DNA from: a virus
Taxonomy: Duplodnaviria; Heunggongvirae; Uroviricota; Caudoviricetes
Length of the DNA stretch: 35,384 nucleotides
IMG/VR virus record: IMGVR_UViG_2684622552_000007
Span: 1-35,384 of that record
Direction: 5' to 3' (one strand)
A model generated the notes under the pieces. It was not told the origin of the DNA and ran no database searches. It saw only the letters and a list, made by a program, of their open reading frames with translations. Position numbers and translations under genes: made by a program. Positions 1-19,567 of the stretch are shown one piece after another; the first letter of the stretch is position 1; every line of letters begins with the position of its first letter.

Positions 1-108
1 GATTACATCGAAATGTTTTATAACAGTAAGCGTCGGCATGGTTCTAGCGAACAGATGTCACCGACAGAATATGAAAACCAGTATTATCAACGGCTCGGAA
101 GTGTCTAG
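1..108 (+). CDS. IS3-family (DDE/rve) transposase, C-terminal fragment truncated by the window edge
   Basis: Frame-1 translation DYIEMFYNSKRRHGSSEQMSPTEYENQYYQRLGSV then stop at 106-108; this FYN..RRH...SP.EYE tail is typical of IS3-family OrfB. Exact IS identity and right inverted-repeat boundary (somewhere in 109-200) not resolved. Confidence 0.6.
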   Translation, partial: DYIEMFYNSKRRHGSSEQMSPTEYENQYYQRLGSV

Positions 109-152
109 ATTATCCGTGGCGATTCAGCGAGCATCCCAACTTGAGCGTCTCA

Positions 153-803
153 TCATTCATCCTCCTGCTGTAATGCTGCAACCATGGCTTTGGTTTCAGC
201 GATTAGATTTCGTGGTAACTGGCTACCCGCTTTTAGCATGCCTATCCCAAACACCAGCCAGCGCTGCAGCATGTCCGCATAACCATCCGGAGTTCCCGGA
301 GAGTTGCCATTTACATCGAAGTTTGGCTCTGCGTCCTGAACCAGGAGGATGTAACCATTCTTGGCTGTATCAAGTTCTAACGCCTCGGTGACGGTACCGA
401 AATAGCGATTACCTAAATCAGCATCACAAGTGCTTACATCAATGGAAACTTCCATGCCTTCGATTAATTCTGGCAAGTTGTAAGTTTGGCTTACAGGTTG
501 GCTACCCTGAAGCATGGCGGCGCGGTGACACCAGATAATCCAGCCAAGCGCCATATCCCATGCCATGTATTCTCTATCGCCATTTTTTGCCCTACGGCGA
601 TCTACAGATTCCCCGAAACGCTTCTCCATAAATAATTCATAGGCTGCTCGTTCATCCGATACTGCTGCCAGTGATGCCAGTGCAATTTTTAATGCGGTAA
701 GCATGTTGTTTTGATCTTCATCGAGTCCGAACGGTATTTCATCCCGTGCTGACTCAATGCTGGTAATCGTGTTCTGTAACCATTCTTTGGTAAGAGTATT
801 CAT
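153..803 (-). CDS. Hypothetical phage protein (216 aa), last gene of the leftward early operon before the IS fragment
   Basis: Track ORF; start 2 nt after the stop of the upstream small ORF (operon packing). No family recognised by eye. Confidence 0.5.
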   Translation of the reverse strand: MNTLTKEWLQNTITSIESARDEIPFGLDEDQNNMLTALKIALASLAAVSDERAAYELFMEKRFGESVDRRRAKNGDREYMAWDMALGWIIWCHRAAMLQGSQPVSQTYNLPELIEGMEVSIDVSTCDADLGNRYFGTVTEALELDTAKNGYILLVQDAEPNFDVNGNSPGTPDGYADMLQRWLVFGIGMLKAGSQLPRNLIAETKAMVAALQQEDE

Positions 804-805
804 AA

Positions 806-997
806 CTATTTCACTTTAATCTCAATATTTCGCAGCTTTAGCTCTACTGGCAGGTCTGACTTTCCTGTTAATGCTAATGCGAGATTTTCAGGAGTAATGA
901 GAGCAGTTATTGTTTTCCCCATTGCCAGACGAATAATCATTCGTATCTCGCGATCGTCACATGCTCCCGGTCGAACAATTGATATTTGTCCGATCAT
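806..997 (-). CDS. Small hypothetical protein (63 aa)
   Basis: ATG at 997 preceded on the minus strand by AAAGGAGAG Shine-Dalgarno; the Ead-like stop codon lies 1 nt upstream. The 90-aa track ORF 806-1078 is an in-frame extension that overlaps the Ead-like gene and lacks an SD. Confidence 0.45.
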   Translation of the reverse strand: MIGQISIVRPGACDDREIRMIIRLAMGKTITALITPENLALALTGKSDLPVELKLRNIEIKVK

Positions 998-998
998 C

Positions 999-1748
999 TC
1001 ACTCTCCTTTGATGCGAATGCCTGCGGCGCGTGGCACATTAACTTCCACGATGCGCACAGTTGGTTTGTACATCTCAATCGCTGTCAGCCAGTCAGCTCC
1101 TGTCATGCGCTTTTCTGCATCGCCATTAATCCACTTAACCGGTACACCAATAGCCTTCATCGAGATTTCTATTTCCCCGGCAATGGCGCTTTTTCCGCAA
1201 CCAGTAAAACCAGATACAACGACAAGAACTTCGCCTTTGACTGGTTTTATTTCCCGCGCTTCCAGTTCTGCTATGCGCTTCTCTGCGGATTCCAGCGCTG
1301 CAACCAATTCGTCTACAGTTCCGGCAGCTTGCAGTGCGTAATCGGTAATAGCCATCTCATGATCAATTTCAGTACCGTTCTCATTCGTTGAGGTGATAGC
1401 AAAATAATCAGAGTCGATTTCGTTATCAGCTAAGTGGCGTAGCGTATCGGCAACAAGCTGGCCGTTTTCGATTAGCAGCCTCCCAACCGTTAGCGCAATA
1501 TCCTCGTTCTCCTGGTCGCGGCGTTTGATGTATTGCTGGTTTCTTTCCCGTTCATCCAGTAGTGCCAGCACGGTTTCTGGTCCGGCCAGAAATTTGAAGG
1601 CGTTGAGCGCATCAATATCCACACCGTAATCTTTAAGTTCCTGTTCACTTAACAAATCATCATCAGCTGGCAACATTAACAGGCGTTCCATTGCTGGAAT
1701 TGCACGTTCCGCCACCTCACGCAGTGCCTGGTAATTAATTTCGCTCAC
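999..1748 (-). CDS. Ead/Ea22-like early protein (249 aa) with C-terminal Walker-A-like motif
   Basis: N-terminus [15 protein letters not shown] resembles Ead/Ea22 proteins of lambdoid phages (recall); C-terminal segment contains VLVVVSGFTGCGKS (beta-strand then GxxxxGKS). Confidence 0.6.
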   Translation of the reverse strand: MSEINYQALREVAERAIPAMERLLMLPADDDLLSEQELKDYGVDIDALNAFKFLAGPETVLALLDERERNQQYIKRRDQENEDIALTVGRLLIENGQLVADTLRHLADNEIDSDYFAITSTNENGTEIDHEMAITDYALQAAGTVDELVAALESAEKRIAELEAREIKPVKGEVLVVVSGFTGCGKSAIAGEIEISMKAIGVPVKWINGDAEKRMTGADWLTAIEMYKPTVRIVEVNVPRAAGIRIKGE

Positions 1749-2194
1749 TGGTTGCCTCCTTTGCGAAGCTGGGCAGCAAAGTCACGGATAGTGTCATCAA
1801 GGTCTGGGCACAACAGATGGTCAGCAAACATCTCTACCCCCTGCGCCCGTACTTCAGCCAGGAAAGCATCGGTGGCTGGGGTTTCAGTAACATCATCTTC
1901 CCATTCGCCAAACTCCTCACGACAAAAGTCATTAAATTCCTTCTCAGATTGCTTAAGCGAGATATTTTCTGCAGCCATCTTCGCGCATTTAGCCTCAAGG
2001 TTATCAATCGTGATTCCAGCAGAACGACACTCCCGCAACGCCGTTTCCAGTTTTGATTCAAGTTCACCGAACTTACGGACAAGATATTCAGCATTTGTTT
2101 CGTTAACCTTTAAATCTCGTGGGATGCATTTACCTTTCAGAAATCCATCCATCTCAATTAGTGTCATTTGTTTCATTTTTTCCCACTCCGCCAC
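1745..2194 (-). CDS. Hypothetical acidic coiled-coil protein (149 aa from GTG at 2194; 143 aa from ATG at 2176)
   Basis: Track ORF. The ATG at 2176 has a GGAG upstream and forms an ATGA overlap with the stop of the small ORF 2173-2337. Confidence 0.5.
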
Positions 2195-2337
2195 ATCGCA
2201 TTCAGATATTTGTTTTGATTCACTGATGGAAAAGAATTTCTCTTAAGTAATTCCTCTCTCGATGGCATTGGCTTTACGCGTTGGCGAATAATCATTTCTG
2301 CCGGAAGAATGCCGGGATTGTATGCAAGTCCTCTCAT
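2173..2337 (-). CDS. Small hypothetical protein (54 aa), below track threshold
   Basis: Hand translation [54 protein letters not shown]; AGAGGA SD 8 nt upstream of ATG 2337; stop overlaps the next start as ATGA. Confidence 0.35.
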
Positions 2338-2353
2338 GGTAAATTCCTCTTTG

Positions 2354-2668
2354 TTAATTTATTCGTATGCCCGCTCTTTCTTCATCGAGTTTTTTTAGCT
2401 TGTATCTCATAGCTCTTACTGAATAAATTGAGCGGCAGGTTGCAATTGCTATTTCTTCTGCGGAGAACTTACCGAAAAGTGATACTTCGGCTCTTGTCCA
2501 GCGTCTTCCACGAAGTCGGCTAACAATGTCAGCTCCAATCCTTGTTGCTTTCGCCATTACTGCTTTTTCAGTCCTTTCCAGTTTTTCAGCGATAACTTCA
2601 ACTGGCATTGTCGACGCCACTTCGCGCAAGAAATCGACTTCCCATTTCTCCCATGGAGTCTTTTTCAT
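2354..2668 (-). CDS. Hypothetical basic protein (104 aa), possible helix-turn-helix
   Basis: Track ORF in operon context between Gp157-like and distal genes; no family recognised. Confidence 0.5.
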
Positions 2669-2679
2669 AGGCGATACCG

Positions 2680-3168
2680 TTATTTGATAAGAAGTGAAGG
2701 TTTCCCAACTTTGAGTTGAGCGCCGGGGATATTTATTCCTGCTTTTAGTTGGTGTTTGATTGCCAGTTTGTCGGCTTTAATTGTCGTTTCAAACTCAACG
2801 TATTCAGGAGGAAGGGCGCTTGAGTCGATGATTTCTACGGTTTCTGACGGTTTGCGGATTGTTACCTGGTGAATACCTGCTCGAATCTTTTTCTTGCCAA
2901 CCATTTCAAGCGATGACGCTATATATGATTTGATGCTGTCAATCTTATTTTGAATTACTGCGGCTCGCTCATTTAGTGACTTCGCCTCTTCCTTGAGGCG
3001 TTCAGCATAACCAGATTCATTTTTAATAATGGCAAGAAGTTGCTCTATTTTATCGGTAAATTCTCCTTCCATGCCTTCTATTGTGTCAGCAATCATCTCT
3101 GGCTCTAAATCTGAATCCATCAGCTTTGCGTATTCATTGGCTATTTCATACAGTTTGCTCACTGGCAA
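2680..3168 (-). CDS. Gp157-family phage protein (162 aa), companion of RecT-type recombinases
   Basis: Size, composition and position directly downstream of recT match the Sipho_Gp157-type proteins (recall); start overlaps the RecT-like 3' end. Confidence 0.5.
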   Translation of the reverse strand: MPVSKLYEIANEYAKLMDSDLEPEMIADTIEGMEGEFTDKIEQLLAIIKNESGYAERLKEEAKSLNERAAVIQNKIDSIKSYIASSLEMVGKKKIRAGIHQVTIRKPSETVEIIDSSALPPEYVEFETTIKADKLAIKHQLKAGINIPGAQLKVGKPSLLIK

Positions 3169-4057
3169 CCTCCAGTTTCGCTTTGCATTCTATGTAAATG
3201 GCTTGTACGTTCTGCTGCAATTTCATTCCAGATGTCAGGCGATATGCTTCTGCAAAATATCGCTTCAAATCATCCATGTTTTCTGCCTGAGCCATTTCAT
3301 CGCAAAGAAGTTGTGCTTTATCCATTATTTCCTGCTGGCGTTTCCGTTCATCTTCGCGGATATCTTCCTCTGATTTGTGCGGCATAACTGGTTCAGTCCA
3401 TACACCTTCTTCTTCGTTTAGTACGTGAATAGCACTATCAAGACGTGATGCCTTAGGCCAATACTTGCTTGCACGCTTTACGACCGTCTTTCGTGCCATC
3501 TCATTCCAGTGATTTACCCATGGTCCTTTATCGCTGAATGCTGCCTTGCTTGTTTTCCTTACAGCCTCAATTTCAGCCAGACTCATCTCTTCCGTTAGAT
3601 AATCACCTGCTGGCGTCTTAACTGTGCAGTAAACGCCAACGATATCACCACGATCACCGAAGGCGTTGTATTTATGGGTTGGTGCTTTATCAAGCCCGTT
3701 TGACTCATAGGTATCGTTAGCATGAACAAGTTTTGCCTGACCCCATGAGATAACACCAGACTCCATTGCAATATGGAGCAATCCCATATAGCTGATATCA
3801 AGGCAAACCATGCCGTCGCGCGGAACCAGATAAGCAAGTTTGCTGGCCGGGTTTAAGGTGATGCCGATCGCCGCAACATTGATGATGGCGTTCTGTGCGC
3901 TGGTTGGATTTGCCAGTGCCGTTTTAGCCAGGTAATCGTTTTTCTGGAAATACTGAATTGCAAACTGGCTTTCCTTAGCCCATGTCACCGTCTGTTCAGT
4001 CAATGCTCCGCAGAATAACTGCTCTTGCTGTTTAACGAATTCAACGATATTGCTCAT
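3146..4057 (-). CDS. recT: RecT-family single-strand annealing recombinase (303 aa)
   Basis: Motif DKGPWVNHWNEMARKTVVKRASKYWP matches the conserved RecT segment GPWVTHWEEMAKKTAIRRLFKYLP (recall of Rac RecT). Confidence 0.8.
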   Translation of the reverse strand: MSNIVEFVKQQEQLFCGALTEQTVTWAKESQFAIQYFQKNDYLAKTALANPTSAQNAIINVAAIGITLNPASKLAYLVPRDGMVCLDISYMGLLHIAMESGVISWGQAKLVHANDTYESNGLDKAPTHKYNAFGDRGDIVGVYCTVKTPAGDYLTEEMSLAEIEAVRKTSKAAFSDKGPWVNHWNEMARKTVVKRASKYWPKASRLDSAIHVLNEEEGVWTEPVMPHKSEEDIREDERKRQQEIMDKAQLLCDEMAQAENMDDLKRYFAEAYRLTSGMKLQQNVQAIYIECKAKLEVASEQTV

Positions 4058-4365
4058 GCTGCTTCTCCATAAATGTGTCTGCGTTTGAATATTGCGAAAG
4101 CATATTCAGCCTTAACTCTTTCGGTTATTGCATCCCAGAACCATTCAGCGGCTTTTTCCTGATAGTTACAGTCATCATCTTCCAGCCAGTCGATAGCGTC
4201 CTTAGTGTGTTCATCTGGTTTATATGAGCGAAGCATTTCGCTTATTGGGTCGCAACGTTTGCAGAGGCGATCAACTTCACTGTTGATTCGTTCGTAATCA
4301 TCATCGGTAAAACTTGCGATGATTTGCGATATTTCACGCTTATCATTCAGAGTCAGAATCATCAT
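4054..4365 (-). CDS. Hypothetical acidic protein (103 aa) upstream of recT
   Basis: Track ORF; ATGA overlap with the recT start; far too small to be a RecE/YqaJ-type exonuclease. Confidence 0.5.
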   Translation of the reverse strand: MMILTLNDKREISQIIASFTDDDYERINSEVDRLCKRCDPISEMLRSYKPDEHTKDAIDWLEDDDCNYQEKAAEWFWDAITERVKAEYAFAIFKRRHIYGEAA

Positions 4366-4446
4366 CTTTCTCCTGTTCTTTGTGCTGATTGAGCATTTTG
4401 TTCATCTGACGAATGAATTCTTCGTCTGACCAGTTATCTGTAAAAC

Positions 4447-4599
4447 TCATTTCCTGCGATACCACGGAAGGTTGATAGCTGATTTCATCGCTTTATTTGC
4501 TTCAAGCCACATTTTTGAATCACCAATAAATCTGGCTATTACTGCTTTGTTCTGTGCAGCACGAAGCATCTGGTGATTGATGGCTATTTCATTGCGCAT
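4447..4599 (-). CDS. Kil-like small protein (50 aa), below track threshold
   Basis: Hand translation MRNEIAINHQMLRAAQNKAVIARFIGDSKMWLEANKAMKSAINLPWYRRK; FIGD.KM motif and position (between cIII-like and the recombination genes) recall lambda Kil; GGAGG SD upstream. Confidence 0.4.
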   Translation of the reverse strand: MRNEIAINHQMLRAAQNKAVIARFIGDSKMWLEANKAMKSAINLPWYRRK

Positions 4600-4695
4600 A
4601 ACGCCTCCAGTTGTTTCTTTGCTTGTAGTGGTTTACTGAATTTGGCCACCTGAACAGAGGTGATATGCTCACCTCAGAACATTACAGGTGCCTCA

Positions 4696-5970
<1,275 letters not shown>

Positions 5971-17714: not shown

Positions 17715-18155
17715 ATGGCGCGCCCAACAAAGTATCAAGAGGCGTATGCCGAACAGGCACGCAAACTGTGCTTGCTGGGCTACACCGATGCAGAACTTGC
17801 TGATTTCTTTGAAGTCAGTGAGTCAACTATTAACAAGTGGAAGCTTGATTATCCTAAGTTTTCGGAGTCCATAAAAAAGGGTAAGGCCGTCGCTGATGCA
17901 GAAGTTAGTGACCGTCTTTATCAACGCGCTATGGGCTTCGTGGCTCCAGACATCGATATTCGTGTTATTGAAAACAGAATTGTCGAAACTCCGCTTGAGA
18001 AGTATTACCCGCCTGATACAACTGCCGCCATCTTCTGGCTTAAGAACCGACAGAAGGATAAATGGCGCGACAAGGTTGATCACGAGCTAACAGGCAAAGA
18101 CGGCGGCGCAATCCAGATTGAAACATCACCGATGAGTACTCTATTCGGAAAATGA
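17715..18155 (+). CDS. Terminase small subunit (Sf6-type, N-terminal HTH)
   Basis: 146 aa directly upstream of and overlapping the large terminase; C-terminal GKDGGAIQIETSPMSTLFGK recalled from Sf6 TerS. Confidence 0.7.
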   Translation: MARPTKYQEAYAEQARKLCLLGYTDAELADFFEVSESTINKWKLDYPKFSESIKKGKAVADAEVSDRLYQRAMGFVAPDIDIRVIENRIVETPLEKYYPPDTTAAIFWLKNRQKDKWRDKVDHELTGKDGGAIQIETSPMSTLFGK

Positions 18156-19567
18156 CCTCGATTAATCCTATCTTTGAACCGTTCATTGAGGCGCATCGCT
18201 ACAAAGTCGCCAAAGGCGGTCGAGGTAGCGGTAAGTCATGGGCAATTGCGAGGCTGCTTGTTGAAGCGGCGCGTCGGCAGCCTGTGCGTATTCTCTGCGC
18301 TCGTGAACTGCAAAACAGTATCAGCGATTCGGTAATCCGGTTGCTTGAAGATACCATCGAGCGTGAAGGGTATTCGGCTGAGTTTGAAATTCAGCGTTCA
18401 ATGATTCGTCATCTCGGAACGAATGCTGAATTCATGTTCTACGGCATCAAAAACAACCCGACGAAGATTAAATCGCTCGAAGGCATTGATATCTGCTGGG
18501 TGGAAGAAGCGGAAGCGGTAACAAAGGAATCGTGGGATATCCTGATACCAACCATCCGCAAGCCGTTTTCCGAAATATGGGTGAGCTTTAACCCGAAGAA
18601 CATACTCGACGATACCTATCAGCGATTCGTTGTAAATCCTCCCGATGATATTTGCCTGCTGACGGTGAACTACACCGACAACCCGCACTTTCCTGAAGTT
18701 CTCCGTCTGGAGATGGAAGAGTGCAAACGCAGAAACCCGACACTGTATCGTCACATCTGGCTTGGTGAGCCAGTAAGCGCAAGTGATATGGCAATCATCA
18801 AACGTGAATGGCTTGAAGCCGCAACCGATGCGCACAAGAAACTCGGATGGAAAGCGAAAGGCGCTGTTGTCTCTGCGCATGACCCGTCAGATACAGGGCC
18901 GGATGCTAAAGGTTATGCATCGCGTCACGGTTCGGTTGTTAAGCGCATTGCCGAAGGTCTGCTGATGGACATCAATGAAGGTGCTGACTGGGCAACTTCG
19001 CTGGCGATTGAAGACGGTGCTGACCATTACCTGTGGGATGGTGATGGTGTTGGTGCCGGGCTACGCAGACAGACAACGGAAGCGTTCTCCGGCAAGAAAA
19101 TTACCGCCACGATGTTCAAGGGCAGCGAATCGCCATTCGATGAAGATGCGCCTTATCAGGCCGGAGCATGGGCTGATGAAGTCGTGCAGGGAGACAACGT
19201 TCGCACTATTGGTGATGTATTCCGCAATAAGCGAGCGCAATTCTATTACGCACTGGCTGACAGGCTGTATCTGACATATCGGGCGGTTGTCCACGGTGAG
19301 TATGCAGACCCCGACGACATGCTGAGCTTCGACAAAGAAGCGATAGGCGAGAAGATGCTGGAGAAGCTGTTTGCAGAACTTACGCAGATTCAGCGCAAAT
19401 TCAATAACAACGGGAAGCTGGAGCTTATGACTAAGGTCGAAATGAAGCAGAAGCTCGGTATTCCATCCCCTAACCTGGCTGATGCGCTGATGATGTGTAT
19501 GCATTGCCCAGAGTCGGCTGCGCAACCCGACTATTCCAGTTACTCAATTCCTTGTGGTGTAGGTTGA
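18152..19567 (+). CDS. Terminase large subunit (Sf6/P22-like; ATPase plus nuclease)
   Basis: Walker A KGGRGSGKS, Walker B-like ICWVEEAE; overall match to the Sf6 large terminase by recall. Confidence 0.9.
   Translation: MTSINPIFEPFIEAHRYKVAKGGRGSGKSWAIARLLVEAARRQPVRILCARELQNSISDSVIRLLEDTIEREGYSAEFEIQRSMIRHLGTNAEFMFYGIKNNPTKIKSLEGIDICWVEEAEAVTKESWDILIPTIRKPFSEIWVSFNPKNILDDTYQRFVVNPPDDICLLTVNYTDNPHFPEVLRLEMEECKRRNPTLYRHIWLGEPVSASDMAIIKREWLEAATDAHKKLGWKAKGAVVSAHDPSDTGPDAKGYASRHGSVVKRIAEGLLMDINEGADWATSLAIEDGADHYLWDGDGVGAGLRRQTTEAFSGKKITATMFKGSESPFDEDAPYQAGAWADEVVQGDNVRTIGDVFRNKRAQFYYALADRLYLTYRAVVHGEYADPDDMLSFDKEAIGEKMLEKLFAELTQIQRKFNNNGKLELMTKVEMKQKLGIPSPNLADALMMCMHCPESAAQPDYSSYSIPCGVG

Follow-up and report, generated by a model that had tools for sequence, protein, structure and literature searches.

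Organization of the three-gene cassette

The present analysis deals with a 35,384-nucleotide (nt) DNA sequence of a virus of the class Caudoviricetes (IMG/VR record IMGVR_UViG_2684622552_000007, positions 1 to 35,384; this whole stretch is further referred to as the window) and, within it, with a cassette of three minus-strand genes (window positions 153-1748) that encode proteins of 249, 63, and 216 amino acids (aa) and are packed with gaps of 1 nt and 2 nt (Table 1). The first gene codes for an Ead/Ea22-like protein, the C-terminal part of which contains a domain of ~70 aa with a Walker A motif, further called the mini domain. This mini domain is a strongly selected phage module that is probably related to P-loop proteins and may bind a ligand. 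As a whole, the cassette is known biology and belongs to the usual mosaic early-left cargo that a P22-like Escherichia fergusonii prophage carries. Both the 249-aa and the 216-aa protein are present, in exactly this form, as E. fergusonii RefSeq entries on one 198-kb contig.

The open reading frame (ORF) of the Ead/Ea22-like protein starts with a GTG codon, which is preceded by an AAGGAGG Shine-Dalgarno sequence 6 nt upstream and overlaps, in the tetranucleotide GTGA, with the stop codon of an upstream 149-aa ORF. Its junction with the 63-aa ORF reads ...AAAGGAGAG-TGA-G-ATG, a single G separating the stop codon (1001..999) from the ATG start codon (997..995), with a GGAG sequence 6 nt upstream of the latter. 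The second junction consists of a TAG stop codon (808..806), the dinucleotide TT, and the ATG start codon (803) of the 216-aa ORF. Along the minus strand, the genes follow the order RecT, Gp157, DUF2737, 149-aa Ead-like, 249-aa Ead-like, 63-aa, and EaA-like, which is shared by phages HK620 and mEp043 and by Escherichia coli prophages. The 249-aa gene hence occupies the early-left position distal to the recombination genes that characterizes the Ead/Ea22 family, and its product matches the Pfam family Ead_Ea22 (PF13935), on aa 2-95 only, with 93.8 bits versus a cut-off of 27. A first-pass annotation of this DNA had described a tightly coupled distal early-left cassette with an Ead/Ea22-like first gene, which is borne out by this gene order and this Pfam score; the coordinates, the junctions, and the Walker-like motif were likewise found as described there.

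Table 1. Location of the cassette genes, the mini domain, and the neighbouring features in the window
Feature	Position	Strand	Remarks
Ead/Ea22-like ORF	1748..999	-	249 aa; identical to E. fergusonii WP_046081846.1
Mini P-loop-like domain	1020..1238	-	~70 aa; Ead aa ~171-243
63-aa ORF	997..806	-	phrog_1222; equivalent of HK620 hkaF
216-aa ORF	803..153	-	EaA/DUF551-family; identical to E. fergusonii WP_236713854.1
149-aa Ead-like paralogue	1745-2194	-	phrog_614, phrog_492, phrog_368
54-aa ORF	2173-2337	-	HK620 and E. coli E62 counterparts annotated as DUF2737 family
104-aa protein related to D5-like regulator	2354-2668	-	Neighbour
Gp157/Mu Gam-like protein	2680-3168	-	23-nt overlap with the RecT ORF
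RecT (PF03837)	3146-4057	-	Neighbour in the early-left arm
End of IS3-family insertion sequence	1..130	+	Transposase C-terminus at 13..108, ending ...FYNSKRRHGSSEQMSPTEYENQYYQRLGSV

Sequence features and conservation of the mini domain

The Walker A motif is part of the stretch VLVVVSGFTGCGKS (aa 174-187 of 249), after which 62 residues follow. The signature of the mini domain can be written as GEVLV-V-SG-TG-GKSA-AGEIEI ... W ... EK-MT-ADW ... Y-P-V-IVE-N. Within it, the Walker A sequence GFTGCGKS (nt 1211..1188) comes after the hydrophobic stretch VLVVV and is followed by a helix (domain residues 19-32) in a model made with AlphaFold2 (AF2), corresponding to the strand-loop-helix order of a P-loop. 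Further downstream, VRIVE represents a Walker-B-like hhhhE element that ends in an invariant Glu (E68, domain numbering). A bare GxxxxGK[ST] pattern is unremarkable in the window, as its six-frame translation gave four matches, two of which are chance ones adjoining stop codons, the other two being located in the Ead/Ea22-like protein and in the ORF of the terminase large subunit (18152..19567); therefore, the case for a P-loop rests on comparative evidence. The only other motif inside an ORF, KGGRGSGKSW (18215-18238, plus strand), is found near the N-terminus of a 471-aa ORF preceding a 732-aa ORF and is presumed to be the Walker A motif of the large terminase.

Such comparative evidence was obtained from an alignment of 77 sequences, with identities down to 46%, in which G18, K19, S20, G24, E25, I26, E27, and I28 were invariant, as were W39, E45, A51, P62, and E68 (domain numbering). 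At least 90% conservation was found for V7, V9, V11, G13, G16, A21, K46, T49, D52, W53, E58, Y60, V64, and I66. The GxxxxGKS motif was intact in ~340 of 343 homologous clusters, the three exceptions being singletons, and the motifs were kept at ~50% identity in the copies from Methylobacterium, Mesorhizobium, Acetobacteraceae, Pandoraea, and Sulfuriferula. It is this conservation across homologues that lifts the Walker A motif above chance. Furthermore, pairwise ratios of nonsynonymous to synonymous substitution rates (dN/dS) versus the Escherichia, Mangrovibacter, and Serratia copies amounted to 0.07-0.14. These data indicate that the mini domain is a functional unit under strong purifying selection and not a remnant.

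Distribution and autonomy of the mini domain

When 1.84 billion representatives were searched exhaustively with HMMER, aa 168-249 being the query, 435 clusters at 50% identity were retrieved with E<1e-3, the matched core corresponding to query residues ~4-75. Among the 130 representatives inspected (proteins of 110-623 aa), the domain was C-terminal in 111, N-terminal in 15, and internal in four cases; no NTPase signature was present in the remainder of the proteins that carry it N-terminally or internally. When the last 88 aa were used as a query, 264 clusters at 90% identity were retrieved, the best 120 of which were all >90% identical; the close relatives among these 120 of the 264 clusters were mostly "ead/Ea22-like" proteins of 94-154 aa with varied N-termini. 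In addition, a profile search retrieved stand-alone phage proteins of 69-90 aa, for example P0345 (MSKVTITVSGRVGSGKSAICGEIEILCKALGLKVEWIDGQQEKNLTHADWTEALEMYKPHVVLIESIEK), and two stand-alone copies were located within arrays of small genes on phage contigs of 40-54 kb. A genome scan found the domain in Escherichia, Mangrovibacter, Serratia, Chania, Methyloversatilis, Burkholderiales, Pandoraea, Sulfuriferula, Methylobacterium, Mesorhizobium, and Acetobacteraceae, a spread that covers Alpha-, Beta-, and Gammaproteobacteria.

The mini domain is matched by phrog_11761; no Pfam or NCBIfam family scored above its cut-off on it, and PADLOC gave no match for the three cassette proteins or for the Ead C-terminal domain. 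A targeted literature search combining Ea22 with Walker A, P-loop, or ATP-binding did not retrieve any paper that mentions Ea22, a search on Ea22-like, DUF551, EaA, and ead returned unrelated papers only, and a text search of the Ea22 papers PMC10834534 and PMC8614690 found no mention of a P-loop C-terminal domain. Judging from its distribution, the mini domain is an autonomous phage module of ~70 aa; it represents an uncurated family that is undescribed as far as the literature search reached.

The Ala/Pro-rich homologues P0194-P0221 carry the mini domain N-terminally (~aa 23-96), then variable modules between which recurring linkers such as ARQPVGEPV and AAPPAQAVDL are placed, and a conserved end ...DSQAVGNG; they look like a different modular scaffold displaying the same mini domain. 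Another copy, 94% identical to the Escherichia one, was found on a 3-kb contig of a metagenome-assembled genome assigned to the actinobacterium Collinsella sp. (L010; JAIHTM010000290.1), which is most likely a mis-binned enterobacterial prophage fragment.

Mosaic structure of the Ead/Ea22-like protein

The 249-aa protein matches phrog_250 (E=6e-67) and also phrog_368. It is made up of an N-terminal Ead_Ea22 part, a variable middle part, a helical segment, the mini domain as a P-loop-like C-terminal domain, and a 9-aa tail (AAGIRIKGE). The helical segment (~aa 145-167, ...AEKRIAELEAREIK) is a putative coiled coil. An AF2 model of aa 140-249, albeit of low confidence (predicted local distance difference test score, pLDDT, of 48.7), contains a helix at aa 145-164, a Pfam scan gave a weak match with the coiled-coil family DUF7310, and a heptad-like sequence, KRIAELEAREIK, stands before the domain in nearly all enterobacterial homologues. 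The exact 249-aa protein forms a singleton cluster, and a PDB sequence search with the full Ead protein returned noise only.

The protein HkaG of phage HK620 shares with the 249-aa protein the N-terminus, the putative coiled-coil segment ...AEKRIAELE(A/D)REI, and the last 9 aa (AAGIRIKGE), with an unrelated module in between. As both flanks are shared and the module between them differs, the P-loop segment is a cassette within a mosaic protein. Elsewhere, the N-terminal 43 aa of the upstream 149-aa paralogue are fused directly to the mini domain (P0009, P0088, and P0104); these proteins begin with MKQM(T/S)..., share an N-terminal module that runs to ...ESKL, and end with the mini domain. Such fusions suggest that tandem paralogues have recombined, or that DNA between them has been deleted, in their repeated, putative coiled-coil segments. 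The true start of the 149-aa paralogue may be an internal ATG codon (MKQMT...) instead of the listed GTG codon.

This build corresponds with what has been described for Ea22, in which a short N-terminal part is followed by a coiled coil and then by a C-terminal domain that is separable and variable (PMC10834534, PMC8614690). The ea22 genes of Shiga toxin (Stx) phages are mosaic too, with unrelated C-terminal domains and tandem paralogues (PMC10834534). Experiments on Ea22 of lambda and Stx phages have revealed tetramerization and a pro-lysogenic phenotype (PMC7093339, PMC10834534). The C-terminal domains of Ea22 are dimeric modules, for which no ligand is known in the case of lambda Ea22 (PMC10834534).

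Probable relationship of the mini domain with P-loop proteins

Similarity of the mini domain to P-loop proteins was weak, albeit recurrent. All of 25 diverse members tested gave P-loop Pfam matches, all of them below threshold, with AAA_16 found in 25/25, APS_kinase in 24/25, and AAA_18 in 21/25. Among PDB sequences, most of the matches obtained in a profile search were with P-loop proteins, with E=0.01-1 (UvrA, ArsA, gluconate kinase, CysC, shikimate kinase, and MinD). Modelling of the 82-aa domain with AF2 on the diverse alignment of 77 sequences gave a pLDDT of 83.7 and a predicted template modelling score of 0.71, with helices at residues 19-32, 42-49, and 53-60. A Foldseek search with the model found no match with E<5 in the PDB and one in BFVD (probability 0.97, 32% identity), an unnamed viral protein of 82 aa that is probably a distant stand-alone homologue. 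The structural neighbours returned by structure search, albeit weak ones, were enriched for P-loop NTPases.

A canonical P-loop NTPase core comprises at least five strands and usually at least 150 aa. The mini domain is without membership in any canonical NTPase family, since a complete alpha/beta core is lacking and no family model scored above its threshold. What it has in common with P-loop NTPases is the hydrophobic strand, the GxxxxGKS loop, the helix, and, further on, a putative hydrophobic strand with an acidic residue at its end, together with weak but consistent sequence and structure neighbours among the small kinases (APS kinase and gluconate kinase) and the SIMIBI class (MinD/ParA/Mrp/ArsA/BioD). 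It differs from them by its size of ~70 residues, with at most three putative strands, no strands 4 and 5, and no base-recognition or lid elements, by its own invariant motifs GEIEI and EKxMTHADW, and by its occurrence as a mobile domain or mini-protein in phage and prophage contexts only. Its three extended segments span domain residues 6-12, 35-39, and 63-69. Taken together, the mini domain is P-loop-like and probably derived from the P-loop superfamily.

Possible function of the mini domain

The best explanation of the findings as a whole, which we consider probable on balance, would be that the mini domain serves as a phosphate-, nucleotide-, or phospho-ligand-binding head on a mosaic protein of the Ea22 plan. 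The P-loop-like fold, ligand binding, and oligomerization are inferred, as would be any role in the lysis-lysogeny decision or in host interaction. The cassette would be a polycistronic stretch of the pL operon (early-left, ea/exo-xis-type), composed of exchangeable gene and domain modules. In the 249-aa protein, the Ead_Ea22 module would be followed by a coiled-coil stalk that oligomerizes the protein and by a swappable C-terminal domain. The mini domain may have kept the first third of a P-loop NTPase, namely the strand, the Walker A loop, and the helix, to which a conserved EK-x-[ML]-T-[HG]-A-D-W segment would be added and, at the end, a hydrophobic strand with the invariant, Walker-B-like Glu. 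Since a domain of this size could not make up a full catalytic core by itself, the head is proposed to work in dimeric or oligomeric form, with the coiled coil or, in the stand-alone forms, self-association keeping the subunits together. It would then form the end by which a non-essential early accessory protein binds its ligand or target. As a precedent, engineered beta-(P-loop)-alpha polypeptides, down to 40 residues, bind NTP, polyphosphate, and single-stranded DNA, and do so only as oligomers (bioRxiv 10.1101/2020.07.30.228619).

The main rival explanation, which is possible but in our opinion rather doubtful, considers the mini domain as a structural or protein-binding module, in which the Gly-rich GxxxxGKS loop would be a conserved turn or interaction surface that binds neither nucleotide nor phosphate, the P-loop likeness reflecting distant ancestry or convergence without retained function. 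Several findings speak for it and weigh against a ligand-binding head. The matches with P-loop families all stay under the curated thresholds and cover ~40 profile positions (strand, loop, helix, and next strand). The first AF2 model, of aa 140-249, was unusable, being based on a shallow alignment of 50 near-identical homologues, and no beta-ladder was seen by DSSP in the AF2 model with a pLDDT of 83.7, which leaves a P-loop-like sheet putative; moreover, AF2 may merely reproduce the loop geometry from the motif. Conservation is evenly high over the whole domain, including the non-P-loop motifs GEIEI and EKxMTHADW, and is not confined to Walker A, so that the motif could be kept for a structural role. 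In addition, the dimeric nature of Ea22 C-terminal domains and the lack of a known ligand for that of lambda itself (PMC10834534) fit such a module. However, the Walker A consensus is near-perfect, including its Lys and Ser residues, across phages of Alpha-, Beta-, and Gammaproteobacteria, a hydrophobic strand with an invariant Glu is found where Walker B is expected, and the enrichment of P-loop NTPases among the structural neighbours also argues against a purely structural module.

That the C-terminal domain would be a decaying, non-functional remnant of a captured host P-loop kinase, for instance an APS-kinase-like one, carried passively, is very improbable: the best weak matches are indeed with APS kinase and other small kinases, in their N-terminal third only, and the enterobacterial copies are >90% identical, as would be consistent with recent spread, but the low dN/dS values, the invariance of the motifs at 46-65% identity in phages and prophages of three proteobacterial classes, the existence of an intact stand-alone ORF, and the constant domain boundaries all speak against decay.

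A further-reaching reading, which we regard as speculative and rather unlikely, is that the mini domain defines a hitherto undescribed family of P-loop units of ~70 residues, natural and autonomous, which phages across the Proteobacteria would use either alone, as mini-proteins, or multimerized on coiled-coil scaffolds, as domains. If true, few natural Walker-type units for the binding of phosphate or nucleotides known to us would be as small. Such units could serve to sequester a nucleotide or a nucleotide-derived signal, as in a sponge-like counter-defence, or to make the activity of Ea22-type early proteins depend on nucleotide state. Binding of nucleotides, if it takes place, would make the mini domain the natural equivalent of the engineered minimal P-loop prototypes, which serve as models for early enzyme evolution, and would offer a first biochemical handle on one class of Ea22-type C-terminal domains. 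The likeness to the beta-(P-loop)-alpha prototypes of the Tawfik laboratory, namely a very short length and a single Walker A element, is a likeness of inferred action and not of membership; those prototypes are laboratory constructs from consensus sequences, whereas the mini domain is natural and strongly selected.

Coding integrity of the Ead/Ea22-like gene

The first-pass annotation had left a choice between a split or frameshifted nucleotide-binding protein and a small accessory module. The latter is a fair description of the mini domain. The remark in that annotation that too little sequence follows the Walker-like element for a canonical NTPase domain was correct, the element itself being real, with 62 residues behind it and the motif intact in nearly all clusters. 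A split or frameshifted protein would imply that the C-terminus of Ead and the 63-aa ORF, perhaps together with the 216-aa ORF, once made up a single nucleotide-binding protein that has been divided by a natural split or a frameshift, or only seems divided because of a sequencing error. The very tight junctions (1 nt and 2 nt) and the few residues after Walker A could be adduced for this. However, in silico fusion of the C-terminal domain with the 63-aa ORF, with or without the 216-aa ORF, did not extend any match with a P-loop family; in the fused sequences, APS_kinase still covered profile positions 3-40 of 152, with a lower score. Alternative frames and read-through past the Ead TGA codon met many stop codons. 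An error in the assembly at 995-1001 is unlikely to matter, as independent phage genomes show the TGA-G-ATG junction too. The end of the domain is constant in hundreds of homologues, and the domain stands alone at 69-90 aa.

Furthermore, the C-terminal domain and the 63-aa gene assort independently. Only one of 152 phage records matching window positions 806-1240 (phiv142-3) had both of them, and in most of 40 records sampled across the ranking the match consisted of the 63-aa gene and the last ~10 Ead codons only, placing a recombination boundary at ~1022-1031, inside AAGIRIKGE. In two listed records, the match covered the C-terminal domain without the 63-aa gene, one of them, vB_EcoS-689R5, having a 118-aa ORF as the next gene. 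The 63-aa gene is normally found behind other Ead C-terminal domains, its exact product occurs on 230 contigs, and the homology of the 216-aa protein with the EaA/DUF551 family extends from end to end. The independent assortment and the stand-alone forms therefore refute a split or frameshifted NTPase, the probability of which is negligible. The first-pass annotation had itself named two observations that would speak against its proposal, namely a Walker-like segment that is a non-nucleotide-binding part of ordinary Ea22 proteins and downstream ORFs that are conserved independent genes. Only the second was encountered, as the Walker-like segment belongs to one particular swappable C-terminal module and not to Ea22 proteins at large.

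For annotation purposes, the outcome is mostly deflationary, as no broken NTPase is present and both unassigned ORFs are common, independent phage genes. The remaining interest lies in the mini domain, which is well delimited, strongly selected, and equipped with a complete Walker A motif in ~70 residues, and for which Pfam and NCBIfam hold no model.

Comparison with related phages

The cassette resembles the regions of lambda/Stx Ea22 and P22 Ead (PF13935) by an N-terminal domain, a putative helical coiled-coil middle part, and a variable, recombining C-terminal domain, as well as by tandem paralogues, by mosaicism, and by an early-left site that has the recombination genes on one side and the int/xis end on the other. 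The closest likeness in gene order, junctions, and coupling is with hkaG-hkaF-hkaE of HK620 and with Orf35-34-33 of phiv142-3, the 63-aa proteins being near-identical. Phage phiv142-3 also carries the P-loop-like C-terminal domain. HK620 differs in that HkaG is without the P-loop domain and in that HkaE has DUF551 where the window protein has an EaA-type tail.

The 63-aa and 216-aa genes

The 63-aa protein matches phrog_1222 over its full length (positions 1-63 of 63; E=1.5e-39), which assigns it to this family, and no Pfam or PDB match was found for it. It is near-identical to HkaF of HK620, which follows an Ead protein without a P-loop domain, and its exact sequence, which belongs to a 395-member cluster, is spread across Enterobacteriaceae. 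Its gene is a conserved, independent small gene with translational coupling to that of Ead. With its C-terminal 35 aa, the protein matches the end of phrog_11564 (annotated as DNA methyltransferase; E=8e-6, profile positions 83-117 of 117), which hints at an occasional fusion, or mis-merging, of the 63-aa ORF or its tail with a methyltransferase gene. Directly upstream of the Ead gene, E. coli EFF60 has a gene for an S-adenosylmethionine-dependent methyltransferase.

The 216-aa protein is 96-98% identical, on aa 1-174, to very common DUF551 prophage proteins of 234-250 aa. After a linker (NGNSPGTPDG), it possesses a 42-aa EaA-type helical tail in place of the DUF551 module, and indeed DUF551 (PF04448) was not found by the Pfam scan, the alignment breaking at ...TPDG. 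The tail is 62% identical to the C-terminus of EaA of phage mEp043 and is also found behind another N-terminus, namely in P0382 and in E. coli E62 and CH4804. With its shared N-terminal and central modules, the linker, and the EaA-type tail, the 216-aa ORF shows the modular build of EaA-like proteins. A PDB sequence search with the protein returned nothing. The possibility that the tail is a read-through artefact was considered, as E. coli STEC384 has the same DNA after a DUF4752 fragment in another frame, but was rejected because of the 62% protein identity to the mEp043 EaA C-terminus and the recurrence with a different N-terminus in P0382. The tail is hence a legitimate alternative module. 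The RefSeq name of WP_236713854.1, "DUF551 domain-containing protein", has been carried over from the shared N-terminal 174 aa, and the annotation pipeline PGAP lists its counterpart in E. coli E62 among the pseudogenes. Altogether, the comparisons indicate that the 63-aa and 216-aa genes are separate, widespread, modular accessory genes that are merely translationally coupled to Ead.

Genomic surroundings of the cassette

No terminator-like site was found in positions 1-2700 and no Rfam match in positions 1-5000; similarly, no promoter-like site was present inside the cassette, the single match of the scan (107..80, minus strand) falling in the end of the insertion sequence (IS). Without an internal promoter, terminator, or Rfam element, the stretch can be taken for the distal portion of an early-left operon of the lambdoid/P22-like type. 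The IS3-family end lies outside the cassette and sets its left boundary. Indeed, positions 1-132/140 of the window match IS3-family transposase ends in 1,202 E. coli genomes, homology of phage origin begins at position 127, and the IS end lies ~20-25 nt downstream of the stop codon of the 216-aa ORF. In the related prophages of E. coli E62 and STEC384, the position held here by the IS is occupied by small ORFs, torI/xis, and int. As int-proximal genes are found at this position in related prophages, the IS interrupts or replaces the int-proximal end within the window. At the other side of the cassette, the early-left recombination genes of the window are those for RecT and the Gp157/Gam-like protein, those of HK620 encode a Sak4-like protein, SSB, and Abc2, and those of E. 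coli E62 encode Erf and Abc2; the early-left arm of the window is a mosaic that differs from the closest relatives of its ea region.

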